Below the pieces are notes generated by a model that was given only the letters and a program-made list of their open reading frames with translations, ran no database searches and was not told the DNA's origin. DNA of 64,000 nucleotides from an uncultured Nitrosopumilales archaeon. GTDB lineage: Archaea > Thermoproteota > Nitrososphaeria > Nitrososphaerales > Gagatemarchaeaceae. Below are positions 1,376-30,229 of the stretch, piece after piece. Location: positions 1,088 through 65,087 of the forward strand of contig CAYYYU010000059.1 of the NCBI GenBank assembly GCA_964476175.1, in the 5' to 3' direction. The position numbers and the translations under genes were made by a program. Numbering within the stretch: position 1 is the first letter of the stretch; each line of letters starts with the position of its first letter.

Positions 1376-2504
1376 GGTCCTCTTCGTCCTCTATCCCCAC
1401 TGATACCCGAACAAGGGTATCCGGAATCCCAGTCCGCTCCCTTTCTTCGGCCGACATCTGAGTGTGGGTCATGTTCGCGGGCTGTGAAACGAGGGTCTCG
1501 ACCCCTCCGAGGCTCGCCGCTAGGCTCGCGACCTTCAACGATTCGGTGAACTTCATCGCGTCGCGCACGCTCCCCTTAATCTCGATGCTCATCATCCCCC
1601 CGAACCCGCTCATCTGCTTCTTGGCGAGGGCATGCTGCGGGTGCGTCTTCAGACCGGGGTAGTTCACCTTCTTGACCTTCTTGTGGGTCGAAAGATACTC
1701 CGCCAGAGCCTGAGCGTTGGCGTTCTGGACCCTGACCCTGACAGCCATCGTCTTCATCCCCCTCAGCACCAGCCACGCCGGCAGAGGGTCCAGCGTCCCG
1801 CCGAGTTCGCGCCTCATCATCTTTATGGTGTGGGCCTTCTCTTCGCTCGCCACGGCTCCCCCCGCAATCACGTCAGCATGCCCGTTCAGGTACTTGGTTG
1901 CGCTGTGCAGGACGACGTCGGCCCCAAACGTGAGCGGGTTCTGGTTTATGGGGGAGGCGAAGGTATTGTCCACGAGGACGATCGCCCCGGCGTCGTGCGC
2001 AAGTTTCGCGACCCGTGACAGGTCGACCAGTTTCAGGGTCGGGTTCGTCGGGGTTTCCACATAGATTATCTTCGTGTTGTTGCGAAGGGCTCCTGCCATC
2101 TCGTCGAAATCCGTTGTCTCGACAAGGGTCGTCCCGATTCCGATGCGAGGAAGCAGATTCTCGAGCAGCGCGTAGGTCCCTCCGTACAGGTCCCTGATTC
2201 CGACGACGTGGTCTCCTTTGGACAGGAACGAAAAGATAGACGTCGAAATTGCTGCCATTCCGGACGCGAAAGCTGCCCCGTCCCCGCCGTGCTCGAAGGC
2301 TGCGAGCTTCTTCTCCAGCCTGACCACAGTCGGATTGTCCCACCTGGAGTAGACGTACCCACCCTGCCCCGCAACCGCCTTCGGAACCTCTTCCGCCCTA
2401 GTGAAGCCGAAGGTCGCGGTTTCGAAGATCGGCGTAATGATCGAGCCGGTTTCTTCGTCCAACGGTTCTGCCTCGTGTACCGCCCTCGTGGAGTCTTTGG
2501 TCAT
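1338..2504 (-). CDS. PLP-dependent Cys/Met-metabolism enzyme (cystathionine gamma-synthase/lyase or O-acetylhomoserine sulfhydrylase family)
   Basis: 388 aa. Has 'HSATKYLNGHADVIAG' with the PLP lysine and 'YSRWDNPT'. Full-length family resemblance. Confidence 0.85.
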   Translation of the reverse strand: MTKDSTRAVHEAEPLDEETGSIITPIFETATFGFTRAEEVPKAVAGQGGYVYSRWDNPTVVRLEKKLAAFEHGGDGAAFASGMAAISTSIFSFLSKGDHVVGIRDLYGGTYALLENLLPRIGIGTTLVETTDFDEMAGALRNNTKIIYVETPTNPTLKLVDLSRVAKLAHDAGAIVLVDNTFASPINQNPLTFGADVVLHSATKYLNGHADVIAGGAVASEEKAHTIKMMRRELGGTLDPLPAWLVLRGMKTMAVRVRVQNANAQALAEYLSTHKKVKKVNYPGLKTHPQHALAKKQMSGFGGMMSIEIKGSVRDAMKFTESLKVASLAASLGGVETLVSQPANMTHTQMSAEERERTGIPDTLVRVSVGIEDEEDLIADFGQALASL

Positions 2505-2566
2505 TCCTGTTCCGTCGCGGGAAGAGCGGTGTAAATAAGTAGCACACTTTCACCTGACTGGCCCCG

Positions 2567-3436
2567 ATGAAAGCCACTTCGGTTGTGGGACTGCCCGTCT
2601 GCACGCTCGCACATCACAACGGAATCGCGAAGGCCCCCGAGAAGCTTCGGAAGGCAGGGATCATCAACGTCCTGCCGGGCTCGGTCATGGACGAGGGGGA
2701 CGTGGCGTTTCGCCAGATTGACAGAGACTCCCTGGAGGGGGGGATGAAGAACTTCGCCCACTTCAGAGAGACCACCTCGCAGGTCTACAGCTATCTGCGC
2801 GAACTCCAGACCGAGCGTGTATTCCTGATTGGAGGGGAGTGTTCTCTCGTTGTAGGGGGACTCGCCGGTCTCGGCGAGGTCTTCAAGGGCAAGCCAGGGA
2901 TGCTCTGGATGGACGCCCATGGCGACTTCAACACGCCGGAGTCGTCCCCTTCAAGCTACATCGGCGGGATGTGCCTGGCCATGGCGTGCGGCCGCGGTCC
3001 GAAGTTCTCGGATGAGATTGAAACACGAAGGCCGCTGTTGGAGGAGGAGCGTCTTGTTCATCTAGGCGCCCGAGCTCTCGACTCTCCAGAAGTGACGGCA
3101 TTCGAATCCTCTCCTGCGAAACTCTTCGAAATGGACGCAGTGCGAAAGAAGGGGGTGAAGGGGGTCGCGACAGAGGCGGCCAAACTACTGGCCGACAGGT
3201 CGGACTGGATCGTCTGCCATCTTGACGTGGACGTGGTCGACCCCGACCAGGTCATCGCAGTCAATTTTCCCACGCCGGGCGGTTTCACCACACAGGAAGC
3301 GGCCACGGTGATCGGCATTCTGAACAAGACCGGCAAGCTCGTGGCGGTCGACATCGCGGCGTACAACCCTTCCCTTGACTACGACGGGTCTTCCGCAGCG
3401 GCCGTAGTGAACATACTCAAAGAAAGCCTCCACTAG
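2567..3436 (+). CDS. Ureohydrolase (arginase/agmatinase/formiminoglutamase family)
   Basis: 289 aa. Metal-binding motifs 'DAHGDFNTPE', 'GGECS' and 'HLDVDVVDP'. Confidence 0.8.
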   Translation: MKATSVVGLPVCTLAHHNGIAKAPEKLRKAGIINVLPGSVMDEGDVAFRQIDRDSLEGGMKNFAHFRETTSQVYSYLRELQTERVFLIGGECSLVVGGLAGLGEVFKGKPGMLWMDAHGDFNTPESSPSSYIGGMCLAMACGRGPKFSDEIETRRPLLEEERLVHLGARALDSPEVTAFESSPAKLFEMDAVRKKGVKGVATEAAKLLADRSDWIVCHLDVDVVDPDQVIAVNFPTPGGFTTQEAATVIGILNKTGKLVAVDIAAYNPSLDYDGSSAAAVVNILKESLH

Positions 3437-3488: not shown

Positions 3489-3988
3489 TGGTTAAAGGGA
3501 ACCCAACAATAGTTCATCAGTTGGCAGAGGGAGAGGCTTGGTTTGCTGGGCTAGTTGACGGAGAAGGCTGTTTCACCCTTTCAATATATCGCCAACATAT
3601 GCACGCATTGAGATTCGATCTGGTTTTTTCTATCTCAATGAAAGAAGGGACTTGGTACCCTGAGGTAGCTCGGGTCCTTAGTCAGCATGAGATTCGCTTC
3701 AATGCTAGGAGACGCAAGAATCAGATAGAGGTCCACGTAGGAGGGCACGCAAGGGTGAAGAAGTTGATTGGGGTCTTGTTACCATATCTCGTAGTAAAGC
3801 AACCGTTGGCAAGGAAGCTTCTCACCTTTCCCATTTCGCCCCCAAGGAATCGATTTACCTCAATCAGCGAATCGTATCTGGCTGAGATCTGTGAGATGGT
3901 AGATTTCGTGCGGGAGTTCAATCGAGGCAAGAATCGGAGACACAAATGGAACAGCAGGACCATCAGAGAGTTCTACGGAATCAAATAG
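3488..3988 (+). CDS. Free-standing single-motif LAGLIDADG homing endonuclease
   Basis: 166 aa with 'WFAGLVDGEGCF'. Size fits an I-CreI-like homodimer. G+C is visibly lower than the neighbours. Its stop TAG lies inside repeat copy 2 and overlaps the tRNA 3' end. Confidence 0.85.
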   Translation: MVKGNPTIVHQLAEGEAWFAGLVDGEGCFTLSIYRQHMHALRFDLVFSISMKEGTWYPEVARVLSQHEIRFNARRRKNQIEVHVGGHARVKKLIGVLLPYLVVKQPLARKLLTFPISPPRNRFTSISESYLAEICEMVDFVREFNRGKNRRHKWNSRTIREFYGIK

Positions 3989-3995
3989 CGAGGGG
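3986..3995. repeat. 10-bp direct repeat TAGCGAGGGG (copy 2), which is the tRNA 3' end
   Basis: See copy 1. Confidence 0.8.
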
Positions 3996-4110
3996 AGGAG
4001 TTTCAGGCGCTGGGTTCTACCCAACACCATTTGAACCTCCGCTCTGCGGGTTATGAGCCCGCCGGGATGATCCTTGCCCCCCATCAGGGGACTGGCTTCC
4101 CCACCTCGCT
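3986..4110 (-). tRNA. Initiator tRNA-Met (CAU) with two putative introns
   Basis: Hand fold. Acceptor AGCGAGG/CCTCGCT with A1:U72 and discriminator A. Anticodon arm GCGGG-CTCATAA-CCCGC (anticodon 4055-4053) with three G:C pairs next to the loop. T arm GGAGG-TTCAAAT...CCTCC. Extra 24 nt after the D arm (about 4063-4086) and 30 nt after the T loop (3999-4028). Confidence 0.7.
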
Positions 4111-4134
4111 TTGATGGGCACCGTATTGTCACAT

Positions 4135-4146
4135 CTTATATCTTTC
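4135..4146 (-). promoter_or_regulatory. TATA-like box for the initiator tRNA
   Basis: Minus strand reads AAGATATAAGA, centred about 29 nt upstream of tRNA position 1. Confidence 0.4.
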
Positions 4147-4198
4147 TGGGGAATCTCAATCTTGTCGGGGGCGGGCGACCGGATTTCGACCGAATCGT

Positions 4199-4315
4199 CT
4201 ACCCTGCCGGGATGGGTTTCGGCATACAGGCGCACCTGTTGTAGGCGCAGCACGAGCACTTTCCACAGCTTTCGTAGTCCTTGTGTCTACAGACCCTGCA
4301 GATGCACGCGGCCAC
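4199..4315 (-). CDS. Possible 38-aa cysteine-rich micro-protein (not in ORF track)
   Basis: GTG start, then VAACICRVCRHKDYESCGKCSCCAYNRCACMPKPIPAG*. Nine Cys in 38 aa. Sits 15 nt downstream of the HD gene stop on the same strand. Confidence 0.25.
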   Translation of the reverse strand: MAACICRVCRHKDYESCGKCSCCAYNRCACMPKPIPAG

Positions 4316-4329
4316 GAAATGGCCGCCCC

Positions 4330-4881
4330 CTAACGAGATTCTTTAACGTTACCGAGGACGAGTTTCTCGGGGTCCTGGCCCAGCTCGTCCTGGAGCCCCC
4401 TCTTCAGGGCCAGAAGCCTCTCGACGTCGTGCCCCTTCTTGGCGAACCGCTGGACCTCCTGGTCGAAAGGCCTGACCCTGTCCGAAGCGACCATCTTGTC
4501 GGCGAAACAGACAATCCGTTCCTCCAATGTCCTAGGGATGAAATCCAGGTCAGGGAGGCCGACCCGTTTCACCTCTTCGGGGGACAGCCCGGCGCCGACA
4601 TGCCGCCTCACGATTTGAACGACCCGGTCGTCGACCCCTTCCCTTTCCAGGAGCTCGGCGCCGAGGAGACCGTGGTTAACCGTCCGCGACCTGTTCCTTC
4701 CTATGTCATGGAGAAGGGCTCCCGCGACCAATGTCTGGCTGTCGACCTTCCTTCCAGATCGTTGGAACGAGTCCGCAAGCGCCTTCGCGACCTCGGCGAC
4801 CTTCTTGCAGTGCCTGACGACGATTTCGTTGCTGCCGTACTTCCTGTGCAGCTCCAGTGCCTCCCCCTCGGAGGGGATCAC
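4330..4881 (-). CDS. HD-domain metal-dependent phosphohydrolase
   Basis: 183 aa with 'ALLHDIGR' and 'RRHVGAG'. Overlaps tfe by 4 nt. Confidence 0.8.
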   Translation of the reverse strand: MIPSEGEALELHRKYGSNEIVVRHCKKVAEVAKALADSFQRSGRKVDSQTLVAGALLHDIGRNRSRTVNHGLLGAELLEREGVDDRVVQIVRRHVGAGLSPEEVKRVGLPDLDFIPRTLEERIVCFADKMVASDRVRPFDQEVQRFAKKGHDVERLLALKRGLQDELGQDPEKLVLGNVKESR

Positions 4882-5387
4882 TTGACCAGTTCCTCTTCCA
4901 ACTGGTTGATCTTCCAGCGTAGGGCCGACTTCAGCATCTCGTTGTCAAGTCTGTTGAGAGGCTTCGAGCAGGTCGGGCACTTGAAGAAGTTCTCCATGGC
5001 GTCTTCGAAGGTCCTCGTCTGGCAGGTCGAAGTCCCACAGTGGTAGAATTCGTGCATCTCTTCGTACTCCAGCCTCTGCTTGAGCCTGTTCAGGACCTTG
5101 CGCCGCTGCGTCTGTATGAAGCCGTCTGTCTGGTCCCGCTGCGCCTTCCACCTGTAGACGAACCACCCGCGCTTGGGGTCCCTGACCCTGACTCCAGTAA
5201 TCAGGCTCCGCCCGAAGAGGTCGTAAAGCGCCTTCCTCACGGTCTTTATCTTGAGCCCAGTCGCTGATGCTATTTCTTCATCCGTAGCATTCTCGTTGTT
5301 CAGGAGCGCCCTGGCCACCCTCACGTAATTCGGACCGCCAATCAGGCCCGCGACCTTTACGAAGGTGTCCTCGTACTCTATTTTCAT
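4878..5387 (-). CDS. tfe: Transcription factor E (TFIIE-alpha homologue)
   Basis: 169 aa. N-terminal winged helix plus C-terminal zinc ribbon 'CGTSTC...CPTCSKPL'. Confidence 0.8.
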   Translation of the reverse strand: MKIEYEDTFVKVAGLIGGPNYVRVARALLNNENATDEEIASATGLKIKTVRKALYDLFGRSLITGVRVRDPKRGWFVYRWKAQRDQTDGFIQTQRRKVLNRLKQRLEYEEMHEFYHCGTSTCQTRTFEDAMENFFKCPTCSKPLNRLDNEMLKSALRWKINQLEEELVK

Positions 5388-5950
5388 AGTTCGACTACTC
5401 TCTTGCCCTTCGGCATGGGCAAGATCCTTAGCTTGCTTTTGTCGAAGGCCCTCTTAAGCTCTTCTCCGTTCTGAATCTCATGAAGGACTATCGCCAGCGC
5501 AGCAATCTCCGAATGAGGTTGGGAAGTGACAGCTATGTTGTAGTCGGCCTCCTGGTACACCCACCCGGGAACCTTGGGCCCTCCCACGACCACCAGTATC
5601 TTCTCGAGTCTCCTCAGCTCGTCCACCTTGTCCTGTATCGGCAACCCGTACATCGTCAGATGCACAACGCTCCTCCCCTCGCCCTTGGCCTCTCGTATGA
5701 CCTTCTTCCACGGCTCACCGAGGGTGACCCTGAAATCCCCGCCCCAGGTCTTGTTCACCCCGTCTACGGTCCCCAGAAGCTCCTTCTCAGCGTCCTCCAG
5801 GTAGATGCATTCGGCTCCGAGGGCCCTTGACACCAGGCACAGGTGCGTGAACGTCCTGTCGTCCCTGACGTACCGCTGCCCGACCCGAAGGACTCTGATG
5901 CTCTTGCCTGAGGAATTCACTGTCACTCTGCCGTCGAGGACCCCCGCCAC
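5384..5950 (-). CDS. trm56: tRNA (cytidine56-2'-O)-methyltransferase aTrm56 (SPOUT)
   Basis: 188 aa. 'LRVGQR..RD.R..TH..LVSRALGA', 'VHLTMYGL', 'ADYNIAVTSQPHSEIAALAIVL' and 'KGKRVVEL' align along the full length with Pyrococcus aTrm56 as I recall it. Confidence 0.9.
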   Translation of the reverse strand: MAGVLDGRVTVNSSGKSIRVLRVGQRYVRDDRTFTHLCLVSRALGAECIYLEDAEKELLGTVDGVNKTWGGDFRVTLGEPWKKVIREAKGEGRSVVHLTMYGLPIQDKVDELRRLEKILVVVGGPKVPGWVYQEADYNIAVTSQPHSEIAALAIVLHEIQNGEELKRAFDKSKLRILPMPKGKRVVEL

Positions 5951-6065
5951 CCTCGGAGATATATGCTGCAGGAGCTCCGGAGGCTCAGCTCGCGGGCAGA
6001 AGAGCCGCTAGGGGAAGCCGACCACTGGGGAGACCATTCACACCTTTTATCCCCTCCCTACGTCC

Positions 6066-6542
6066 GTGCCAGGGATGAAGGAATCCGACGAGCGCCGTCG
6101 CCTTTCAATCATCGTTGACTACCTCTTCGGCAGAGGGGTCAGCAAGGCGCTCCCGAAGGATGGGTTGCGGCTCGTCTATTCGCGCAAGTCCGGCAGAGTG
6201 AAGCTCGTCCTCCACGATGGGAAGGTCTTCGCCACTGTGAAGCCGAACGGTGCCATGGCCCTGTCACTTCACGGTGCGACTGTGCTTGCCCGGAGTCCGA
6301 AGTTCAGGGACAACTGCGTCATGGTGGCGGACGAAGTCGCCGAGTTCGTCAAGGGGGGCAAGTCAGTCTTCTGCAAGTTCGTCACCTGGTCCGGGAAGAG
6401 CGTCCTGCCGAAGGGAGAGGTGACCATCATCGACAGCAGCGGCAAGGTCCTCGGAGTCGGGATGGCGGTCATGAATGGAAAGTTCATGAGGCAGTTCGCT
6501 TCTGGGGTGGCTGTCAAGGTAAGGGTTGGGATACCAAGATGA
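6066..6542 (+). CDS. PUA-domain RNA-binding protein
   Basis: 158 aa. C-terminal PUA-like 'GEVTIIDSSGKVLGVGMAVMNG'. Confidence 0.7.
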   Translation: MPGMKESDERRRLSIIVDYLFGRGVSKALPKDGLRLVYSRKSGRVKLVLHDGKVFATVKPNGAMALSLHGATVLARSPKFRDNCVMVADEVAEFVKGGKSVFCKFVTWSGKSVLPKGEVTIIDSSGKVLGVGMAVMNGKFMRQFASGVAVKVRVGIPR

Positions 6543-6871
6543 AGATGGACAATAGGCAGGCGAGACGGATGATGGAGCGGATGGGGATCAACATGAAGGA
6601 GATTCCGGGGGTCAAGGAGGTCATAATCAGGACATCGGACAGGGAGATGCACATCACCAACGCATCGGTCTCCGAGGTCAACGCCCAGGGGAACAGGGTC
6701 TTCCAAGTGGTCGGGGAGGTCGAAGAGGTAGAGGTCGAGAAGAAGGCCTTCAGCGAAGAGGACGTCCTCTTGGTCCAGCAGCAGGCGGGGGTCACGAAGG
6801 AGCGTGCCATGGCCGCGCTGGAAGAGTCCGAGGGGGAAGTCGCGAGAGCGATACTGAAGCTCACCTCCTGA
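6539..6871 (+). CDS. nac: Nascent polypeptide-associated complex protein (NAC alpha homologue)
   Basis: 110 aa. NAC domain followed by a UBA-like tail 'EEDVLLVQQQAGVTKERAMAALEESEGEVARAI'. Confidence 0.85.
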   Translation: MKMDNRQARRMMERMGINMKEIPGVKEVIIRTSDREMHITNASVSEVNAQGNRVFQVVGEVEEVEVEKKAFSEEDVLLVQQQAGVTKERAMAALEESEGEVARAILKLTS

Positions 6872-6921
6872 GGCTGAACGTTTAATTACGCAACTTCAAG
6901 CCAGACCGCAAAGCAGCTGTA

Positions 6922-7251
6922 ATGAGCAAGACAATCGAAGACACACTCAAGGCGCTCGTCGAATTCGAGTCCGAGCTGGACGTTGCCAGGGCAGACGCGT
7001 CGGAAGCCCGGATCCAGATGGTCAAGAAGGCTGGTGAGTGGGCAGAGCGCGCGAAGGCCGACGCCATAGCCAAGGCCCAACAGGTTGCTGCCGAGACCCT
7101 CGCCCGGGCTCGGGATGAGGCCGAGAAGGAGGCGGAATCAATCAGGAAGAAAGGGGAAGCGGCGCTGAAGGGCTTCCAGGGGTCGATTTCAAAACACCAG
7201 TCTGATGCGGCTCAGATGGTCGCAAAGATTCTGCTAGGTGAATCAAGTTGA
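6922..7251 (+). CDS. atpH: A-type ATP synthase subunit H (peripheral stalk)
   Basis: 109 aa, charged coiled coil. First gene of an H-F-E run. Confidence 0.6.
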   Translation: MSKTIEDTLKALVEFESELDVARADASEARIQMVKKAGEWAERAKADAIAKAQQVAAETLARARDEAEKEAESIRKKGEAALKGFQGSISKHQSDAAQMVAKILLGESS

Positions 7252-7544
7252 AAGTGGTGGCAGTGGGAGGAAAGGCCTTCGTCACCGGTTTCGTCCTCTC
7301 CGGGGCCAGCGGCGAATACGTGAGTTCGCCAGGCGCGGCCCTTGAGAAGATCCAGAAGCTGATGAAGGACCCTGAGGTGGGTCTAGTCATGGTCAGCGAC
7401 GATGTGGCCAAACCAATCAGGGACGACCTTACGCTCCTGAAGTCCAAGAAGGCGGTCCCGCTCATCTATGAGGTCCCGGGGCCCGGGAGCAAGGCGGAGA
7501 AGGTCGAATACAGAGCGATGCTGAAGGCGATACTAGGAGTCTGA
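7248..7544 (+). CDS. atpF: A-type ATP synthase subunit F
   Basis: 98 aa. 'MKVVAVGGKAFVTGFVLSG' is typical of V/A-ATPase F. 4-nt overlap with atpH. Confidence 0.75.
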   Translation: MKVVAVGGKAFVTGFVLSGASGEYVSSPGAALEKIQKLMKDPEVGLVMVSDDVAKPIRDDLTLLKSKKAVPLIYEVPGPGSKAEKVEYRAMLKAILGV

Positions 7545-21855: not shown

Positions 21856-21967
21856 TGGGGTCGCCCGGATTTGAACCGGGGATCTTCAGCGGACTCGGCC
21901 CACAGGATCAGTGAATCCAGATGGGCTCCCAAGGCTGAAAGCCTAGACCAGACTAGCCGACGACCCC
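21856..21967 (-). tRNA. tRNA-Pro (UGG) with a 36-nt intron after position 38
   Basis: Hand fold. Acceptor GGGGTCG/CGACCCC. D stem GGCT/GGCT has two central Watson-Crick pairs and G:U wobbles at both ends (10-25 and 13-22). Anticodon arm TCAGC-CTTGGGA-[21891-21926]-GCTGA. T arm CCCGG-TTCAAAT-CCGGG. Lengths sum exactly to 112 nt. A Gln (UUG) register is a less likely alternative. Confidence 0.7.
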
Positions 21968-22092: not shown

Positions 22093-22929
22093 TTGGATGC
22101 CCTCGTTAACTCGGACGAGTCTAACCCGCCCTCATGTGAATGGATAGGAGGTTTTTTCGATGGTGAAGGTTCCATCGCTTTGACTTCGCGGAAGTTTTCA
22201 ATCGACCTAATGGTCAGTTTTACCCAGGCATATCGACCCATACTCGAACGGGTGAATTCGCATCTTCAAAGCGAGGGAATCCAAGGAGGAACTCCCCGGA
22301 CAGAAAGGGGTGGCAGGATAAGTCGGCTGATTTTCGTCTCCAATCTTCAAATCTTGCAGGTTCTGAAGAACCTCCTTCCCTCTCTCAGAATCAAAGCCGA
22401 GCAAGCGCGAGCCACAATCGATTATTTGGAAGACCGGATGACTGGCAACGAATTTCTTGCGATAATGAACTCTGAAATTGGGGTTCAGAAAAGGGGAGGG
22501 GACAGACACGAAGCGTCGTATCCTTGGCTCCGCTCCGAAGGCATTCGCATGACCCGTCTCAATTCAATCAGCTACGCAAGAGCTGTGCACAAGGAAAGAC
22601 GCAGTTCCCCCGATGCGAGAGAACGCGAGAGGTCCAAGGCAATCGAGAGGAACTTTCGAAGAGGTTTCTCAACTCAAAGAAAGGTTCTCACCTTGCTCGT
22701 CAATCGACCATTGACGACGGGTCTGGTAGCTCACGGCATGGGAAGGACCTGGCAACACACTAGGCTACTGTTGAAGGGGTTGTACGAAAGAGGGCTACTG
22801 GTAAGAAACCATTCAAGAATCACCGAGCCGTTCGAGTATAGCCTAACACCGTTGGGACGTAGTTATCTATCGGACAGCGGTGGGAAAGACATCCATGGAT
22901 TACCACCCCCTCACGAGAGCGTTTTATGA
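22093..22929 (+). CDS. Free-standing LAGLIDADG endonuclease fused to a C-terminal winged-helix domain
   Basis: 278 aa. 'WIGGFFDGEGSI', and a C-terminal 'GLVAHGMGRTWQHTRLLLKGLYERGLLV' MarR-like wHTH. Lower G+C. Overlaps the mpg start by 50 nt. Confidence 0.8.
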   Translation: MDALVNSDESNPPSCEWIGGFFDGEGSIALTSRKFSIDLMVSFTQAYRPILERVNSHLQSEGIQGGTPRTERGGRISRLIFVSNLQILQVLKNLLPSLRIKAEQARATIDYLEDRMTGNEFLAIMNSEIGVQKRGGDRHEASYPWLRSEGIRMTRLNSISYARAVHKERRSSPDARERERSKAIERNFRRGFSTQRKVLTLLVNRPLTTGLVAHGMGRTWQHTRLLLKGLYERGLLVRNHSRITEPFEYSLTPLGRSYLSDSGGKDIHGLPPPHESVL

Positions 22930-25045: not shown

Positions 25046-26269
25046 ATGCCTTCGATGCGAGTCATAGCCGACCTGCAGCTCCATTCGAAATACGCCCTCG
25101 CCACAAGCAGGGACATGGACCTCGAGCACATCGCAGACGGCGCCAAAGCGAAAGGCCTGAACCTGGTGGGGACAGGGGACTTCACCCACCCTGTCTGGTT
25201 CTCAGAGCTAAAGACGAAGCTGGAGCCCATCTCAGGGACTGGGCTCTACTCATACCGAGGAACCACCTGGATGCTCGCCGGGGAGGTCAGCACGGTCTAC
25301 GAGCAGGACGGGAAGACGCGGAAGGTCCACCACCTCGTGTACTCTCCTGACATGGAGACGGCGGCCCAGATTAACAGCATCCTTTCGAAGTACGGCAATC
25401 TGAGCTCCGACGGGAGGCCGGTCCTCACCGGGATCGATTCAGCCGAGTTGGTGGAGCTCCTCACTGGTCTTTCAGACGGCGTCGTGGTGATTCCCGCCCA
25501 CGCGTGGACTCCCTTTTTCGGGGTCTTTGGCAGCAGGTCAGGTTTCGATTCGTTGAAGGAGTGTTATCAGGACCAGGTGGGGAAGATTTTCGCAATCGAA
25601 ACAGGTCTCAGCTCCGACCCTCCCATGAACTGGAGGCTTTCGTCTCTCGACAGGGTCGCACTCGTTTCGAACTCTGACGCCCATTCCCCCAACCCCTGGA
25701 GACTGGGGAGGGAGGCCAACGTCTTCGACCTGGAGAATCTGGACTACAGGAGCGTCTTCGATGCGATTCGGCAGAAGGACCCAGTGAGATTCAAGTTCAC
25801 GATAGAGGTAGACCCTGCTTACGGGAAGTACCACTACTCCGGTCACAGGAAGTGCGGCGTTTCTCTGTCTCCCCAAGACTTCCTCCGCGTCAAGGGGGTG
25901 TGTCCAAAGTGCGGAAAGAAGGTGACGGTCGGAGTCATGGGGCGGCTCGAGCAGCTCGCCGACCGTCCAGAGGGACACAGGCCTCCCGGCGCGATTCCGT
26001 ACAAGGGCCTACTTCCCTTGTACGAGGTCATCTCAGTCGCCACCGGAGTGAACCGCCTCTACGTCGAGCGGGTGATTGAAGAGCAAGACAGGCTGATCAA
26101 CGCCTTTGGGAGTGAACTGGCCGTCCTCCTCGAAATCAGCCCGGAACAGCTGAACAAGGTCACCAAGAAGACCATCTCTGAAGCGATCATTTCGATGAGG
26201 GAGGGAAGGACAACGTTCACTCCAGGGTACGACGGAGTGTACGGGGTACCCCACTTCGTGTCACCATGA
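25046..26269 (+). CDS. Endonuclease Q (PHP-domain nuclease for deaminated bases)
   Basis: 407 aa. 'ADLQLHSKYALATSRDMDLEHIA..AKGLNLVGTGDFTHPVW' and the zinc finger 'CPKCGKKVTVGV'. Confidence 0.8.
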   Translation: MPSMRVIADLQLHSKYALATSRDMDLEHIADGAKAKGLNLVGTGDFTHPVWFSELKTKLEPISGTGLYSYRGTTWMLAGEVSTVYEQDGKTRKVHHLVYSPDMETAAQINSILSKYGNLSSDGRPVLTGIDSAELVELLTGLSDGVVVIPAHAWTPFFGVFGSRSGFDSLKECYQDQVGKIFAIETGLSSDPPMNWRLSSLDRVALVSNSDAHSPNPWRLGREANVFDLENLDYRSVFDAIRQKDPVRFKFTIEVDPAYGKYHYSGHRKCGVSLSPQDFLRVKGVCPKCGKKVTVGVMGRLEQLADRPEGHRPPGAIPYKGLLPLYEVISVATGVNRLYVERVIEEQDRLINAFGSELAVLLEISPEQLNKVTKKTISEAIISMREGRTTFTPGYDGVYGVPHFVSP

Positions 26270-26305
26270 AGGCCGGGCGCGGGTCGCCGAACGTGGACAG
26301 GCCGA

Positions 26306-27295
26306 ATGGTTTTTAGTTCAACTGGACTCGTTCGCGGCGCAGCGTTGAAGGGACCTGACCACGGGACGCAGAGGTTTCTCCTGTGGACGGGGCTTTCTGT
26401 CGGGTCGAGCCTCACAGTCTACTATCAGCAGATTGTGGCGCTCTCGTCGAACCTGGGTGGACTGCTGGTAGACACCTTCGGAACGGTCTACTCGGCAATA
26501 CCCTTCGCTGCGCTCCTCATCCTCGTGTTCGCTCTCCGGTGGAACGACCTTCACGGACTTCTTCAGGATGAGCAGGGCTTCTCGTCGTTCCCCCGAAGGA
26601 GGGTGGCGGGGGCGCTCTTCGTTGCGTCCCCCCTCGTCCTTCAGCAGTTGGCCTTGGCATTCAGCCCCCTCTCGACATACGCCGCGATCGAGCTGGCTGG
26701 GGTCACCATCGTGCTCGTGTTCTACGGCATGTCGCTGCTTGTGAATCCCTCCACCCTGCGGTTCATGCTACCTTACGCCTCAGTGTACGTCGTCGGCATA
26801 GTTGCCCCGGTCCAGCTTCAGTCAATGTTCGGAGAGCCCCTCGCGTCGCTATCTGCATCCATGAGCGCGTGGATCACGGGCGTGGGGGGATTACCTATCA
26901 CGTGGCAGGGGGTCTTGTTCGGATTCGCGTCGAGGGTTGGGGGGAGTCAGGTCACCGGAGTGGTGACTCCAGGCTGCTCAAGCATCTACTCGATCACGAC
27001 CTTCCTGGGACTTCTCGGGCTGATGTATGTGGACTTCAGGGGGCCGTTGCTTTACACAACCAAAATCGCTATCGTGGGGGTGGTGGCACTCGTTCTCCTG
27101 AACGTTGTGAGGATCAGCCTGCTGATATGGGTGGGATATGACTTCGGACAAGATTCCCTCCTAGCACTGCACAACTGGGTCGGCTACGCGATGTTCGTCG
27201 GCTTCTACGTCGTCCTGCTGTATGTCTATTCCAACAACGCAGGGGGACGACGACCCGCTGTACTGCGAAGTGCACAGCGCTCCCGGACGGTCTGA
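26306..27295 (+). CDS. Archaeosortase (exosortase/archaeosortase family transpeptidase)
   Basis: 329 aa polytopic membrane protein. Candidate catalytic Cys 'VVTPGCSSIYS', Arg 'NVVRISLL' and His 'LHNWVGY' occur in the family order. Adjacent to a PEF-CTERM substrate. Confidence 0.65.
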   Translation: MVFSSTGLVRGAALKGPDHGTQRFLLWTGLSVGSSLTVYYQQIVALSSNLGGLLVDTFGTVYSAIPFAALLILVFALRWNDLHGLLQDEQGFSSFPRRRVAGALFVASPLVLQQLALAFSPLSTYAAIELAGVTIVLVFYGMSLLVNPSTLRFMLPYASVYVVGIVAPVQLQSMFGEPLASLSASMSAWITGVGGLPITWQGVLFGFASRVGGSQVTGVVTPGCSSIYSITTFLGLLGLMYVDFRGPLLYTTKIAIVGVVALVLLNVVRISLLIWVGYDFGQDSLLALHNWVGYAMFVGFYVVLLYVYSNNAGGRRPAVLRSAQRSRTV

Positions 27296-27335
27296 CATCG
27301 TCTCTGGAGTGGAAGACTTCGTCCGGAGTCAGAGC

Positions 27336-28058
27336 CTACTTGCGTACGATTCCCGTCATCATCTTCTGTCTGCCCGAGTTCCTTCTCGCGAGGAAATACA
27401 ACGAAACGAGAATGGCAGTGAATGCGACGATGATCAGAGGCTGAAACGGAAACTCTGGGATTCCTCCACTCGAGGAACTCGAACTCGAAGTAGTCGACGA
27501 GCTGGCTGTGCTCGTGGAAGAGCTAGGGGTCGTCGTGGTTGTGGTTGTCGAGCTTGACCGAGAGGTGCTACTCGTGGTGGTGGTCGTGCTCGTCGTGGAT
27601 GAGCTCGTCGTTGTCGTTGTTGAGCTTGTTGTCGTCGAACTCGTGGAGGTTGTAGTGGTGGTCAAAGCGTACGTGAATGTTGCGGCACCATGAATGGTCG
27701 GCGGATAGGCTCCCCAGGTCGCGTTGACCGTGTAGGTCCCCGCCCTCCAGGCCGACGAGCCGCCAGTCACAAAGCCAAATTGATAGGCTCCAGTGGTCGG
27801 GTTTACCGACGCATAGCCTGCAACGACCACAGACCCGGCTGGGTTGATTACCTTCACCGTAACCGCAGTGTTCGGCCCTGGGGCAGGAGTGACCGAGCCT
27901 GAGACCGTGGCTGATTGCGTCCCGGAGTACGAACTTGCGTCAGTCTTCACTGTAATGGTATAAGTGGTTTGAGAATAGGCCGGCTGCACCAGCAACAGTG
28001 CGAAGATGCCCGCTACTAGGATGACCTTCATTGCCTGCTCGTCCCCAAGCGTGTGCAT
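27336..28058 (-). CDS. Secreted surface protein with Ser/Thr-rich stalk and PEF-CTERM sorting signal
   Basis: 240 aa. Signal peptide, then an Ig-like region, a 65-aa S/T tract, and 'GGIPEFPF' + TM + 'ARRNSGRQ'. Confidence 0.75.
   Translation of the reverse strand: MHTLGDEQAMKVILVAGIFALLLVQPAYSQTTYTITVKTDASSYSGTQSATVSGSVTPAPGPNTAVTVKVINPAGSVVVAGYASVNPTTGAYQFGFVTGGSSAWRAGTYTVNATWGAYPPTIHGAATFTYALTTTTTSTSSTTTSSTTTTTSSSTTSTTTTTSSTSRSSSTTTTTTTPSSSTSTASSSTTSSSSSSSGGIPEFPFQPLIIVAFTAILVSLYFLARRNSGRQKMMTGIVRK
27468..27662 (-). repeat. Low-complexity Ser/Thr-coding tract (aa 133-197)
   Basis: Degenerate ACN/AGC/TCN codon repeats. Confidence 0.8.
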
Positions 28059-28059
28059 C

Positions 28060-28458
28060 CTACAGAGTCACCTTCACGCTGGTCAAATTCGACACTGGGA
28101 CTCCGTCGCCCGTGGCCGCAAAGAGGAATGCAGTGTATGTCCCATGAGCCAGTCCGGTGAACCCGAAGAAGGTTGTGCTGTTCAGTCCTGCACCCATAGA
28201 CGTGCCAGCAGTCGTTACGTAGACCGTCTGGCCGACGGAATTAGTCAGGTCGACGTAGATGAGAACGAAGAGGGAATTCGCGAACGTACTTCGGTACGTT
28301 ACGGAGACCCCCTGAAAGCCTCCCTGCGTCGACTGAGCTGCGTCTGAAGCGACCAGTCCGGTGGTAAGATAGGTGCTGGACCCGGTCGCAGAAACAGCAG
28401 GGACCAAGAATACCATGACGGAGAGCAATACGGCGAACGCAGATGCCCTCGTGTTCAT
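28060..28458 (-). CDS. Small secreted protein
   Basis: 132 aa. Signal peptide 'AFAVLLSVMVFLVPAVSA'. 1-nt gap to the PEF-CTERM gene. Confidence 0.5.
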   Translation of the reverse strand: MNTRASAFAVLLSVMVFLVPAVSATGSSTYLTTGLVASDAAQSTQGGFQGVSVTYRSTFANSLFVLIYVDLTNSVGQTVYVTTAGTSMGAGLNSTTFFGFTGLAHGTYTAFLFAATGDGVPVSNLTSVKVTL

Positions 28459-28532
28459 GCCTGCGCTGTTCTAGCTTCATCATGCTATTTAATCCTAAGA
28501 CTTTGAACGTGCGACGGAACAAATCGGGCGTG

Positions 28533-28609
28533 TGGGGACGGTCGGATTCGAACCGACGGTATACAGGTTTCTGCAGCTCCAATGCCTAATCATCCACGTT
28601 GCTGTGTCA
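28533..28609 (-). pseudogene. Orphan tRNA-Trp 3' fragment (distal intron plus 3' exon)
   Basis: About 75% identical over about 77 nt to 30057-30136. Contains 'TTGGAGC', A-CCTGT, variable ATACC, T arm GTCGG-TTCGAAT-CCGAC with compensatory changes, and acceptor CGTCCCC-A. No matching 5' exon found in the window. Confidence 0.6.
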
Positions 28610-28750
28610 TCAAACGTTTTATGAACCAATCGACTGTTGACTCGCCTCTGCCGTCGAACTAATAGTTTCAGGATAGTCTCCTCATCTACGTCGGTTCCCA
28701 ACTGAATCGCTTATCCAGCAGAATTCCATCGAGGGCAATTTGTATCATCC

Positions 28751-30049
28751 TTGACGTCGGCGAGTGTGGAGAGTTACGAGTCAGAGGCCAAGGTAGTCCC
28801 GTTTCAATCTCACTCCAATGTCGAAGTCGGTAAGCCGCACGCTGCTTGCAACACACCCGACGGGAGATTCACGGTGAAGGTGAGGAGAGACGGTTCACTA
28901 TTCTTGTTTTCTGGTTCGGGCAGGATGAGTTATCTGAAAGCTGAAATTCTTGAGAAGGTAATTCCTCGTTTCAAAGCTTTCGTTCCAGCCGTGCTGAGTG
29001 TTTCCTATGAAGATGCCAACACGGTTCTGTACCATTTCTACAAGGGCGGGAAGGGCTGGCGAGCAACAGTTCCAAACGACATAGCAGTACCGGGTGACGT
29101 CCTTCAACTCTGCGTCCATCTCCTCAGTGAGGGGGAGTTCGTAAGAAACCTGCCCAAGTTATCTCTCATGAATCCTAGCTTCAAGGATTGGCTCTCAAGC
29201 AAAGTGGAATTGGGCAGCGTCTCTATCGTTAGCAACAAGCTTGAATTGAACTTCAACCAAATACCTCCCCTCGAGGGGGTAACGAATTTCTCGATTGTTG
29301 GTTCTGCGCACGAATCACTCGGTTTCAATTCAGGCAGAACAACTCTTGATTTCGAAGTGAACGATCTCTTCGGTCAGACTAGAGTCATCAGAATGAACCA
29401 CGATGGGCACAAGGCGATGTGGTTGGGCGTAAAATATGGCGACAAATTCGAAAGAATTCTCTTTGTCTCCTCAGATGGCATGAGGACGCGGTTTGTCAAG
29501 AATGCAGGTGGGGGAGAAGTTGACGTTTTGACAAAATACCTTCGGGAACCTTCTGATTTCTATCAGTCAAGCGGACTGGAGGAAATCGAGAATCAATTCC
29601 ACGCCGCCGGCGCGTTCCGGGTCTTTCAAGTTAACGAGGTAAGATTGGAAAGACAGTTGGAATCAGAAATGCTACGCCGAGGCTCTAACTACGAACTCGG
29701 AAGACTGGGCGCCGAGATTGCGTACACCATCGCGAGAAAGGATCTTGGCCTAGGCGATATTGTACTAGTCGAACCGTCCAAAGAGGGCCGGGACCTCTTT
29801 ACAAGAGATGGCAAGGTAGTGATTCAAACGAGATTTGTGAGAGACTGGGAACGGCTTTCGCCGAGCAGAATTGACGATACTGTCAGGAGGCAAGTTCTGA
29901 GCGTTCTCTTCAAACTGAGACAGGATTTCGCATACAATCCTCATTCCAACCTAGGCTACGGAGTATTCTCCTATGCCGTAGGTAGTATTGTGAAGTCCAT
30001 TGTTGTGGCTTCGCGACGTGCAAACAGCAAAGAATCGGTCGAGTACTAA
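28751..30049 (+). CDS. Orphan 432-aa protein of unknown function (low G+C, candidate mobility gene)
   Basis: Long ORF with sampled G+C of about 37-45% against about 60% nearby. No family recognised. The C-terminal 'LGLGDIVLVEPSKEG' is only loosely PD-(D/E)XK-like. Confidence 0.6.
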   Translation: MTSASVESYESEAKVVPFQSHSNVEVGKPHAACNTPDGRFTVKVRRDGSLFLFSGSGRMSYLKAEILEKVIPRFKAFVPAVLSVSYEDANTVLYHFYKGGKGWRATVPNDIAVPGDVLQLCVHLLSEGEFVRNLPKLSLMNPSFKDWLSSKVELGSVSIVSNKLELNFNQIPPLEGVTNFSIVGSAHESLGFNSGRTTLDFEVNDLFGQTRVIRMNHDGHKAMWLGVKYGDKFERILFVSSDGMRTRFVKNAGGGEVDVLTKYLREPSDFYQSSGLEEIENQFHAAGAFRVFQVNEVRLERQLESEMLRRGSNYELGRLGAEIAYTIARKDLGLGDIVLVEPSKEGRDLFTRDGKVVIQTRFVRDWERLSPSRIDDTVRRQVLSVLFKLRQDFAYNPHSNLGYGVFSYAVGSIVKSIVVASRRANSKESVEY

Positions 30050-30056
30050 GTCGGAG

Positions 30057-30229
30057 TGGGGACGGCCGGATTTGAACCGGCGGTCTACAGGTTTCTTGGG
30101 CCGCTCCAAAGCTCATTCATCCACGTTTCCGTGTCAGCGGCTGTAATCTTTGTTGCACTGGAGCCTGTCGCCCTGCCTTTCCAGGGTGAAGTTGTACACC
30201 TGCCCCTCACCAAGCTGGGCTACGTCCCC
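30057..30229 (-). tRNA. tRNA-Trp (CCA) with two introns (32 nt at 26/27, 65 nt at 37/38)
   Basis: Hand fold. GGGGACG-TA-GCCC..GGGC-A | [30169-30200] | ACAGG-CTCCAG | [30093-30157] | A-CCTGT-AGACC-GCCGG-TTCAAAT-CCGGC-CGTCCCC-A. The pieces sum exactly to 173 nt. The intron 'TTTGGAGC' is complementary to the anticodon loop. Confidence 0.75.

Follow-up and report, generated by a model that had tools for sequence, protein, structure and literature searches.

A foreign DNA segment of 1.5 kb with a single gene has likely integrated into the tRNA-Trp gene of a soil archaeon of the Nitrososphaerales, replacing the 3' part of that gene and leaving the displaced original part at the far end of the insert. 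The process is already known from archaea, and the present locus is a clear and probably recent example of it. In the window, here the whole 64,000-nt stretch of DNA that was analysed, two copies of intron 2 plus exon 3 of tRNA-Trp lie in direct orientation at a spacing of 1524-1527 nt and flank a low-GC segment with one open reading frame, ORF432 (Table 1). The GC content of the insert is 0.47-0.51 compared with 0.55-0.60 in the flanks, a base composition unlike that of the host that had been pointed out in an earlier note on this DNA and was confirmed here. Additionally, the same arrangement was found at 100% identity in an independent assembly (L002, SRR12217123) covering window positions 25800-30075, so that an assembly artefact does not explain it.

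A variant contig, L003, departs from the window directly after the stop codon of the ORF, which we count against the preferred explanation; the 145 nt of L003 past that stop were searched, and no identification was obtained.

Table 1. Features assigned at the tRNA-Trp locus, in window coordinates, with the evidence for each.
Feature	Position	Strand	Length	Evidence
Working tRNA-Trp(CCA), chimeric	30057..30229	-	173 nt	Spliced cloverleaf; nhmmer; aligns with 49 orthologues
Exon 1 of working tRNA-Trp	30229-30207	-	23 nt	
Intron 1 of working tRNA-Trp, hypervariable	30206-30174	-	33 nt	
Exon 2 of working tRNA-Trp	30173-30158	-	16 nt	
Intron 2 of working tRNA-Trp	30157-30093	-	65 nt	
Exon 3 of working tRNA-Trp	30092-30057	-	36 nt	
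Resident 5' part (exon 1, intron 1, exon 2)	30158..30229	-		L027 identity; upstream synteny
Foreign part (all of intron 2 and exon 3)	30057..30157	-		L037 and L012-clade identity
ORF432, sole cassette gene, short-form family member	28751..30049	+	432 aa	Intact
Cassette end between ORF start and fragment	28621..28750	-		
Stranded resident 3' part of tRNA-Trp (fragment)	28533..28631	-		L009 identity; nhmmer E 3.6e-27; downstream synteny
Most of resident intron 2, in fragment	28631/28620-28569	-		
Fragment exon 3	28568-28533	-		

The working gene and the stranded 3' part

The complete, two-intron tRNA-Trp(CCA) proposed in the earlier note was supported by both folding and homology: the 173-nt gene, spliced by hand, gives a perfect tRNA-Trp(CCA) cloverleaf in ARAGORN, and a profile of orthologues (n=16) matches it from end to end (nhmmer E 9.8e-48). 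Automated tRNA finding, which had been suggested as a check, succeeded with the hand-spliced gene and failed with the unspliced one. Default ARAGORN and Rfam at the gathering threshold report zero tRNAs in the window, a miss that results from the two introns of the gene. With introns allowed, ARAGORN returns a Cys(ACA) with a single 98-nt intron, which was rejected as a spurious call of the tRNA-Trp gene.

The second copy, said to hold only the distal intron and the 3' exon, was also recovered, with homology running farther 5' than had been noted. Between 28609-28532 and 30136-30056, 67 of the 81 alignment columns are identical with one 3-nt gap, an identity of 83% that replaces the previous estimate of about 75%. 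The two blocks are significantly alike (blastn E 1.5e-14), their alignment scoring 90 against a null of 14 +/- 2.2, and a repeat search recovers both copies, split into one block of 41 nt at 90% identity and another of 37 nt at 81%. The homology of the fragment to orthologues reaches at least 28620 and is weaker at 28631-28648, with nhmmer extending the match to 28648 at a posterior probability of ~0.5-0.6. As had been described, the T stems differ by compensatory changes (GCCGG/CCGGC versus GTCGG/CCGAC) and the acceptor strand is identical. Resident exons 1 and 2 joined to fragment exon 3 likewise form a perfect tRNA-Trp cloverleaf, and the perfect folding of either spliced product counts in favour of the explanation preferred here.

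The fragment is almost unmutated and would yield a valid tRNA-Trp with the 5' exons, as expected of a functional 3' half of a split tRNA (an alternative raised in the earlier note) or of a local tandem duplication unrelated to the ORF. Both are extremely improbable: the working gene is present in full at a distance of 1.5 kb, a search of the 64-kb window revealed no second 5' half, and a split or duplicated gene is present in 0 of ~50 relatives. A local duplication would moreover predict near-identical copies, whereas the observed copies have different nearest relatives.

Origins of the segments and empty sites in relatives

Because its segments differ in their nearest relatives, the tRNA-Trp gene is best described as a chimera of a resident 5' part and a foreign intron 2 and exon 3. 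The working 5' part is identical to that of L027 at 69 of 72 positions, intron 1 included. Working intron 2 agrees with that of L037 from its first base and at equal length (62/65), but with type-A relatives at just 44-45 of 66-67 positions. All 36 positions of working exon 3 are shared with L012, L015, L020 and L022, and a tree of 3' parts groups the working copy with L037 and the L012 clade. The fragment, for its part, is identical to the tRNA-Trp of L009 at 87 of 88 positions, with 36/36 in its exon 3. Gene order was also compared: a GTPase gene and Trm112 lie upstream of the working gene and a gene for a PEF-CTERM protein lies downstream of the fragment, on both sides an ancestral synteny shared with relatives.

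About 50 related Nitrososphaerales loci carry one tRNA-Trp with neither an ORF432 homologue nor a fragment and are thus empty sites; in several of them, a conserved 407-aa gene is located 35-48 nt from the tRNA. The comparison of orthologous loci therefore came out in favour of an insertion, with empty sites present and the two-copy architecture found in none of 80 loci from relatives. In L001 (contig Ga0376158_022649), a 42%-identical homologue of ORF432 occupies the same position beside tRNA-Trp. Within the set of relatives, the tRNA-Trp alleles are mosaic, one exon 3/intron 2 type occurring in a subclade embedded among genomes that carry the other one.

Junction, bounds of the cassette and integration model

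The identity of the two copies does stop at GTGTCA, as previously noted, but the crossover is not located there, the motif only marking the start of a conserved module. TGACAC opens an intron module that is invariant in 49/49 relatives, which accounts for the position at which the identity ends. Since intron 2 is foreign throughout and the fragment keeps resident intron sequence for 11-22 nt past GTGTCA, the junction maps either to the anticodon loop or to intron 2 within ~12 nt of its start. The bounds of the cassette, formerly drawn at 28610-30136, are redrawn to about 28621/28632-30155, giving a length of ~1.53 kb. At the putative junction there is no core of perfect identity (the best candidate is TCCAGTG vs TCGATTG, 5/7), and terminal inverted repeats sought at the cassette ends were not found.

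Adjoining the 5' side of the fragment, 23 nt (28648-28626) resemble a degenerate tRNA anticodon arm; when the comparison was anchored, a score as high as theirs was attained by 0.11% of 23-mers drawn at random from genomic sequence (P about 0.001). An anticodon-arm likeness in this place is to be expected of a tRNA-like att arm borne by an element, and these 23 nt may be the element-side arm of the attachment site. A profile of the 5' half alone detects nothing significant upstream of the fragment. The stranded copy was also considered as a whole decayed tRNA gene and rejected in this form, the 5'-half profile being null and similarity being confined to the adjoining 23 nt under anchoring.

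Combined, these data show that the cassette bore a tRNA-Trp-like attachment segment (intron 2 in full, exon 3 and a few trailer bases) directly beside the 3' end of ORF432. By recombination in the anticodon loop of the chromosomal gene, or right where its intron 2 begins, the resident stretch from exon 1 through intron 1 to exon 2 became linked to the cassette-borne intron 2 and exon 3, yielding the working chimeric tRNA. The resident intron 2 and exon 3 were thereby moved 1.5 kb downstream as a dead-end fragment beside the original downstream genes. The cassette model of the earlier note is thus kept in its foreign 3' part, restored tRNA and stranded resident half, and revised in its boundaries and in the orphan status of the ORF.

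The reaction itself would be a site-specific, att-type recombination of a circular form, with the classical anticodon-loop sublocation of a tRNA target; we infer this mechanism, since no integrase is present. In agreement with the earlier note, no integrase, transposase or other recombinase was found in the cassette or within ~15 kb (neighbours at 12.5-31.6 kb were checked), and with none encoded there the recombinase would have been supplied in trans or since lost. The lack of a recombinase, of inverted repeats and of a perfect core counts against this reading, as does the lack of detectable flanking repeats at most family loci. The same holds for copies that are 83% alike, where a recent integration of the textbook kind has identical att repeats; such divergence is expected only if the tRNA-like segment of the element came from another lineage. 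The event was probably recent, because the fragment shows one difference in 88 nt from a relative whose GTPase gene is just 76% identical at the DNA level and because ORF432 is intact.

Dispensing with a site-specific recombinase, the locus could have formed from linear DNA of another Nitrososphaerales lineage in which ORF432 already lay beside its tRNA-Trp. After uptake, such DNA would have paired with the conserved, homologous block of exon 2 and the adjoining end of intron 1, and its other end would have been attached where resident intron 2 begins, illegitimately or through microhomology. The route would be homology-facilitated illegitimate recombination or the entry of a circle by a Campbell-type single crossover. 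The ~30 nt around exon 2 that are identical across lineages could have served as anchor, L037 and the L012 clade have the foreign intron 2 and exon 3 as ordinary alleles of the chromosome, and the L001 chromosome displays the required donor order of tRNA-Trp and then ORF. The lack of an integrase and of an identical core at the junction also fits. We nevertheless consider this origin unlikely. The ORF432 family is linked to many tRNA genes and has att-like repeats at L101 and L115, both features being more typical of site-specific integration, and illegitimate joining at the exact homologous position with nothing lost would be a coincidence. Nor does a recombinase-free origin predict the degenerate anticodon-arm likeness 5' of the fragment. 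Site-specific integration is the reading preferred here.

ORF432 and its family

The antisense ORF reported in the earlier note is intact but is not an orphan, as 206 clusters in a representative library match it; this family has no known domain. The stop codon of ORF432 is 7 nt from the 3' end of the tRNA, in convergent orientation. No Pfam, PHROG, NCBIfam or PADLOC match was obtained for ORF432, and with the family alignment Pfam gave only three hits (best E 0.0029), each of them weak, confined to one member and not shared with others. Word-indexed homologue searches returned just three proteins each, and scans with the family patterns found no relatives in GTDB genomes and none in IMG/VR. 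The domain search also detected no homing-endonuclease domain in ORF432, in keeping with the earlier statement that no LAGLIDADG gene is present; besides, the 3' part of the target is duplicated, whereas a homing-endonuclease gene would insert with no duplication of its target.

Members of the family adjoin tRNA genes far more often than expected by chance, with a tRNA gene within 350 nt at about 30 of the 63 metagenomic loci that carry ORF432 homologues. The tRNA genes concerned include those for His, Pro, Thr, Glu, Gln, Leu and Val. At these tRNA-adjacent loci, the stop codon is often 2-17 nt from the tRNA and convergent with it as in the window, and at some loci the tRNA is on the 5' side of the module. 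At L101 (tRNA-Gln) and L115 (tRNA-Leu), the tRNA and a second copy of its 3' end enclose family genes alone, and the L101 insert has a GC content of 0.476 against 0.56-0.60 in its flanks. When all family loci were searched for flanking repeats, most had none, and only L101 and L115 had them in a tRNA 3' end; the repeats at L131 and L093 (z>6), like a few of lower score, are not linked to a tRNA. No integrases were found beside family modules, the neighbours being ordinary host genes. Exceptions are L105, where a Cas1-domain protein is encoded, and L084, which has a TnpB-like gene. Several copies are frameshifted. In the long-form members, an N-terminal membrane anchor occurs together with a sequon-rich segment, and neither the long forms nor the ~290-aa partner protein of the family matched Pfam or PADLOC.

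These patterns raise the question of whether ORF432 is itself the mobility enzyme, a new tRNA-targeting recombinase or nuclease of a one- or two-gene element that carries a replacement tRNA 3' part. In the window, L101 and L115, only family genes are found between the tRNA and the 3'-part repeat. The gene adjoins the tRNA-like segment, as integrase genes usually do, and the frameshifts seen in several copies are common in selfish genes. The C-terminal domain, conserved in an alpha-beta-beta-beta-alpha-beta order, also resembles PD-(D/E)xK nucleases in its fold order and in the spacing of Glu, Asp and (Q/E)-x-R, with E322 (an invariant Glu in the first helix), D348 (an invariant Asp in the second strand) and Q359-x-R361 fitting the respective positions. 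However, the (Q/E)-x-R of the third strand usually presents Gln and Arg where the nuclease has Glu/Asp and Lys, and searches by sequence and fold returned no match to a nuclease or recombinase. An AlphaFold model of ORF432 with a pLDDT of 90.2 (compared with 60 for an earlier model built from a three-sequence alignment) found nothing at E<0.001 when searched with Foldseek against PDB and BFVD, the best nuclease hint being at E 0.11. Profile searches of PDB gave one chance-level match with the full-length alignment (E 0.81) and none with the C-terminal-domain alignment, and hhalign against an Hjc sequence was negative. A membrane anchor and a sequon-rich segment, as in the long forms, would also be unusual in an enzyme that acts on DNA; at most loci flanking repeats were not detected, and in some cases the tRNA is 5' of the module. 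We judge an enzymatic role in mobility quite improbable.

A wider proposal is that the family constitutes an unrecognised class of minimal, integrase-less elements of soil Thaumarchaeota, with one or two genes, many tRNA targets and a family protein that catalyses insertion by way of its conserved, nuclease-like C-terminal domain. We regard it as improbable; if it were true, such elements would carry replacement tRNA 3' parts, introns included, and would shuffle tRNA introns and exons between lineages, which would explain the mosaic tRNA-Trp alleles in relatives. For ORF432 itself, the likeliest roles are those of cargo or of a selfish gene within a mobile family that is linked to tRNAs.

Significance

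The locus offers a very clean natural case in which mobile DNA has rewritten an essential, intron-containing tRNA gene and not broken it, with donor-type and resident-type alleles both identifiable in other genomes. It bears on the idea, put forward in the Caldiarchaeum model, that integrating elements spread or create archaeal tRNA introns and fragments. It also bears on the idea that introns shield tRNA genes from integration, as the incoming DNA here brings the intron along. Because the tRNA-Trp alleles of relatives are mosaic, the data suggest that such insertions recur and then lose their traces, which would make them an under-appreciated source of variation in tRNA genes. The ORF432 family, comprising 206 clusters with a confident unmatched fold and a strong link to tRNA genes, is a candidate for experimental study.

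Comparison with known systems

The classical comparison for the targeting of tRNA genes is archaeal integration of the SSV1 and pNOB8 types. Williams reportedly distinguished, in 2002, sublocation classes of tRNA-targeting integrases that include crossover in the anticodon loop. A summary of these systems is given in PMC3293823. The present locus resembles the products of classical anticodon-loop integrases in that, in the working gene, all sequence 3' of the inferred crossover is derived from the element and the resident 3' part is displaced as a second att site. It differs in that the insert is not flanked by an integrase gene, be it whole or partitioned; the partitioned int gene of the SSV type overlaps the tRNA, and ORF432 does not.

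Cryptic integrated elements and other mobile elements in thaumarchaeal tRNA genes were described by Krupovic et al. 2019 (Environ Microbiol 21:2056; PMC6563490). These share with the present insert the host group, a 3'-distal tRNA target that includes intron-containing tRNA genes (10/39), direct repeats flanking the insert, and restoration of the tRNA by element sequence. However, they carry genes for a tyrosine integrase or casposase, and even the smallest of them (2.6 kb, four genes) has an integrase; their att repeats, with a median of 17 bp, are short and located in the 3' exon. The insert described here is 1.5 kb and without an integrase, and its repeat of ~80-100 nt is diverged and includes the whole intron.

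The closest precedent is an insertion in a tRNA-Thr gene of Caldiarchaeum (Sugahara 2012, PLoS One 7:e32504; PMC3293823). There the 5' part was replaced and a new intron arose at 24/25, whereas here the replacement concerns the 3' part, and one allele of an existing intron has been exchanged for another. The Caldiarchaeum insert is multi-copy, and its 270-aa ORF is a weakly predicted recombinase; judged by that description, ORF432 (432 aa, no recombinase signal) looks unrelated. In other respects the two cases are alike. Both are small (~1.5-1.9 kb), essentially single-ORF inserts within an archaeal tRNA gene that supply a tRNA part together with an intron and so produce a multi-intron chimera. 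In both, the displaced original part is stranded on the far side of the insert, the rebuilt tRNA is directly adjoined by the ORF, and empty and occupied sites coexist among relatives. A precedent for the phenomenon is therefore already published (PMC3293823).

tRNA-Trp gene and its second 3' region

Archaeal SRP RNA and 5S rRNA genes in the window identify the DNA as archaeal. The tRNA-Trp(CCA) gene (Table) was missed or miscalled by standard tRNA finders because of its two introns; its spliced sequence was recognized by ARAGORN as a perfect tRNA-Trp(CCA) cloverleaf, and the gene matched a profile of 16 orthologous genes end to end (nhmmer, E 9.8e-48). Of 81 alignment columns, 67 are identical between the second and the working copy, and the alignment has one 3-nt gap (blastn E 1.5e-14; score 90 vs. 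a null of 14 +/- 2.2), and a repeat search of the window recovered the same two blocks. GC content is 0.47-0.51 between the copies vs. 0.55-0.60 outside. Additionally, window positions 25800-30075 recur with 100% identity in L002, a contig of an independent Logan assembly; the arrangement is therefore no assembly artefact, and the two copies around an ORF described in the earlier note are confirmed.

A further Logan contig (L003, SRR12217122) is 100% identical to window positions 28569-30050 and departs completely one base past the stop of ORF432, at the point where the tRNA 3' end lies in the window. Its 145-nt tail (1483-1627) matched neither the window nor any fetched locus, and IMG/VR and PLSDB gave no match either; the contig could be a strain variant that carries an additional insertion, or an assembly chimera.

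Table. Features of the window and nearest relatives (L handles, loci of related genomes) of the parts of the tRNA-Trp locus, as identical/aligned positions.
Feature	Position	Strand	Details	Nearest relative
tRNA-Trp(CCA) gene, 173 nt	30229-30057	-	exons of 23, 16 and 36 nt; introns of 33 and 65 nt	
Exon 1, hypervariable intron 1, exon 2		-	intron 1 at 30174-30206	L027, 69/72
Working intron 2	30093-30157	-	equal length in relative; match begins at first base	L037, 62/65
Working exon 3		-		L012/L015/L020/L022, 36/36
Second copy, distal intron and 3' exon	28609-28532	-	extent of alignment to working copy	
Stranded fragment		-	exon 3, 36/36	L009, 87/88
Anticodon-arm-like 23 nt	28648-28626		directly 5' of fragment	
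ORF432	28751-30049	+	intact; stop codon 7 nt from tRNA 3' end	
Ribonucleotide reductase large subunit, 1486 aa	15012-19472	-	two apparent intein insertions: Intein_splicing, residues ~185-464; Hint and LAGLIDADG_3, residues ~928-1151	
Second intron-containing tRNA gene	21856-21967	-	Rfam tRNA model, 46.8 bits; ~39-nt intron	
Free-standing 278-aa ORF	22093-22929	+	LAGLIDADG_3 domain; about 130 nt from preceding tRNA gene	
407-aa gene	25046-26269			
Archaeosortase-family membrane protein	26306-27295	+		
Ser/Thr-rich protein	27336-28058	-	PEF-CTERM sorting signal	
Secreted protein, 132 aa	28060-28458	-		

Comparison with related loci

Eighty loci were taken from GTDB species representatives using the nearby DUF1512 gene as anchor; the closest relatives of the window were uncultured Nitrososphaerales (Thaumarchaeota). 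An orthologous locus, comprising the conserved 407-aa gene, tRNA-Trp, often a GTPase gene, Trm112, 5S rRNA and DUF1512, was found in about 50 of the 80. Each has exactly one tRNA-Trp match and none holds an ORF432 homologue or a stranded fragment; these loci are empty sites, of the kind that the earlier note had looked to relatives for.

Between working intron 2 and that of fragment-type relatives, only 44-45 of 66-67 aligned positions agree, and the fragment's exon 3, when joined to the resident exons, also yields a perfect tRNA-Trp. A same-strand PEF-CTERM protein gene lies downstream of the fragment, and GTPase and Trm112 genes lie upstream of the working gene, both as in relatives. Combined, the differing nearest relatives, the kept flanking contexts and the valid resident splice product lead us to conclude that the working gene is a chimera of a resident 5' part with foreign intron 2 and exon 3, and that an insert of about 1.53 kb displaced the resident 3' part, now the fragment. 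A reading of the fragment as a split-tRNA half, considered beforehand, or as a local duplication is not supported, given the single tRNA-Trp in each relative; no second 5' half was found in the 64-kb window, which speaks against a split half, and the different nearest relatives of the two copies speak against duplication.

Empty sites in the subclade L012/L015/L020/L022 likewise carry the foreign exon 3, together with an intron 2 of related but less similar type; the members of this subclade share 90-92% GTPase DNA identity, and it is nested among genomes of the other type (85-90% identity to L005/L013/L019). A stretch of ~0.5-1.5 kb between the tRNA and the 407-aa gene, present in sister genomes, is absent from this subclade; such a pattern would be expected if a comparable integration had occurred and both the insert and the old 3' part had later been deleted.

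Intron 1, hypervariable among relatives, is nearly the same in the window and L027 despite only 76% DNA identity between their GTPase genes, and in L004, to which L027 is closest, intron 1 differs; exchange between lineages may also have involved the 5' part of tRNA-Trp. The 3' two-thirds of intron 2 is invariant in 49 related loci. Its sequence, (A/C)TGA-CACG-tetraloop-CGTG-GATGA, allows a K-turn-like hairpin similar to a box D'/C' pair to be drawn, and the TGGAGC that comes next is the complement of GCTCCA in the anticodon loop. The euryarchaeal tRNA-Trp intron acts as a box C/D guide that directs 2'-O-methylation of C34, and intron 2 may be a thaumarchaeal counterpart; canonical terminal C and D boxes were not seen in it.

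Position of the junction

The crossover had been placed at GTGTCA (TGACAC on the tRNA strand), but this motif marks the end of the likeness between the copies and not the junction, TGACAC being the first invariant block of an intron module common to all 49 aligned relatives. The match of the fragment to L009 continues 11 nt 5' of TGACAC and loosely to about 28631, and the working copy is L037-like from base one of intron 2. Since the fragment is resident beyond TGACAC and working intron 2 is foreign throughout, the alignments place the exchange point no earlier than the anticodon loop and no later than about base 12 of intron 2. The insertion interpretation of the earlier note was largely right, with its boundaries and junction now moved.

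The 23 nt directly 5' of the fragment resemble a degenerate anticodon arm: the nhmmer alignment of the fragment runs on into them at moderate posterior probability, and, with the position fixed there, a score at least as high was reached by only 0.11% of random genomic 23-mers. The 5'-half profile on its own gave no match there. Identity is uneven along the fragment side (99% over 88 nt, then about 65%), which an element-borne tRNA-like arm joined to resident sequence would suit better than uniform decay.

ORF432 family and its linkage to tRNA genes

ORF432 had no match in Pfam, PHROGs, NCBIfam or PADLOC; an exhaustive profile search recovered a family of 206 clusters, so that its first description as an orphan is not borne out. 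The short form of the family (~400-430 aa) is ORF432-like and mostly alone, and the long form (~730-780 aa) is, in 63 metagenomic loci (L084-L146), almost always found with an overlapping downstream ~290-aa partner gene, which had no Pfam or PADLOC match. The long form has a membrane anchor at its N terminus and a segment rich in sequons, and may have a second hydrophobic helix; with its partner it forms an uncharacterised two-gene module.

An AlphaFold model of ORF432 from a 49-sequence alignment (pLDDT 90.2) confidently predicts an N-terminal part rich in beta structure and, C-terminally, an alpha/beta domain, and a Foldseek search with it returned no match at E below 0.001 in PDB or BFVD. 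In the C-terminal domain, ordered alpha-beta-beta-beta-alpha-beta, E322 and D348 are invariant and strand three carries a conserved (Q/E)-x-R. The resemblance of this domain to the PD-(D/E)xK layout is a lead only, for which sequence and profile comparisons gave no support. The family is the most interesting open lead from this analysis.

A tRNA gene lies within 350 nt of the family module in about 30 of the 63 metagenomic loci (intron-aware ARAGORN). Eleven are convergent and window-like, with the tRNA 3' end 2-17 nt from the module stop codon; their tRNAs are His, Pro, Thr, one called Glu, and a group in which identity calls are unreliable because of introns. L001 comes from a relative of the window's organism and carries, in exactly this position beside its tRNA-Trp, a homologue with 42% identity. 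A lone short-form gene in L101 has tRNA-Gln on one side and, on the other, a 21-nt repeat that matches the 3' end of this tRNA at 19/21 positions, with an insert GC of 0.476 vs. 0.56-0.60 in the flanks, and in L115 the long form and partner lie between tRNA-Leu and a degenerate copy of the tRNA-Leu 3' end. Flanking repeats were not detected at most family loci, and at some the tRNA has its 5' side facing the module. No integrase was found among the neighbouring genes, which are ordinary host genes; several copies are frameshifted, and no members were found in IMG/VR or in GTDB representatives searched with narrow patterns. Judged from these loci, the family behaves as mobile and tRNA-linked.

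At L105, the short-form gene (3741-5061) abuts tRNA-His, and immediately upstream of it is an 855-aa ORF (625-3192, minus strand) whose residues 584-770 form a Cas1 domain. The arrangement may represent a casposon-like element.

Mechanism of insertion

The comparisons show that foreign DNA was inserted at the anticodon-loop/intron-2 boundary: its intron 2 and exon 3 restored the tRNA, and the resident 3' part was displaced. The enzymology is a matter of inference. In the main rival to the favoured mechanism, integration was anchored by homology and the DNA came from another lineage in which the ORF already stood beside tRNA-Trp; this reading is supported by a ~30-nt identical exon-2 block, by foreign alleles of ordinary chromosomal types, and by the lack of an integrase and of an identical core. 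It is also possible that ORF432 mobilises itself, a reading with no homology behind it. Integration of a circular form by att-type site-specific recombination, with a recombinase supplied in trans or lost since, is favoured because the insertion point is a classical tRNA sublocation, the element side bears a tRNA-like arm, the family is linked to tRNA genes, and L101 and L115 have att-like repeats.

Other features of the region

The second intron-containing tRNA gene was missed by default ARAGORN and by a whole-window Rfam scan at gathering threshold. The archaeosortase/PEF-CTERM pair is frequent here in relatives, but with the archaeosortase on the opposite strand, and the region downstream of tRNA-Trp varies between genomes. 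In L012, the homologue of the 407-aa gene lies in three separated pieces (3947-7396), suggesting an insertion or an intein-like interruption.

Comparison with known systems

At tRNA-Thr(GGU) of Ca. Caldiarchaeum subterraneum, an insertion of 1,868 bp with a single ORF brings part of the tRNA with an intron, rebuilds the gene and strands a tRNA fragment, and exactly this kind of model was proposed for it (Sugahara et al. 2012, PMC3293823). Among 68 mapped thaumarchaeal integrated elements, 39 lie in tRNA genes (10 of these intron-containing), with short att sites (median 17 bp); the smallest element is 2.6 kb and has an integrase (Krupovic et al. 2019, PMC6563490). The window case has the 3' side replaced and a whole intron swapped between allelic types, and its 1.5-kb insert holds no integrase and a single gene of an uncharacterised tRNA-linked family. 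The kind of event is already known, and the present case is a well-documented variant of it and not a new category.
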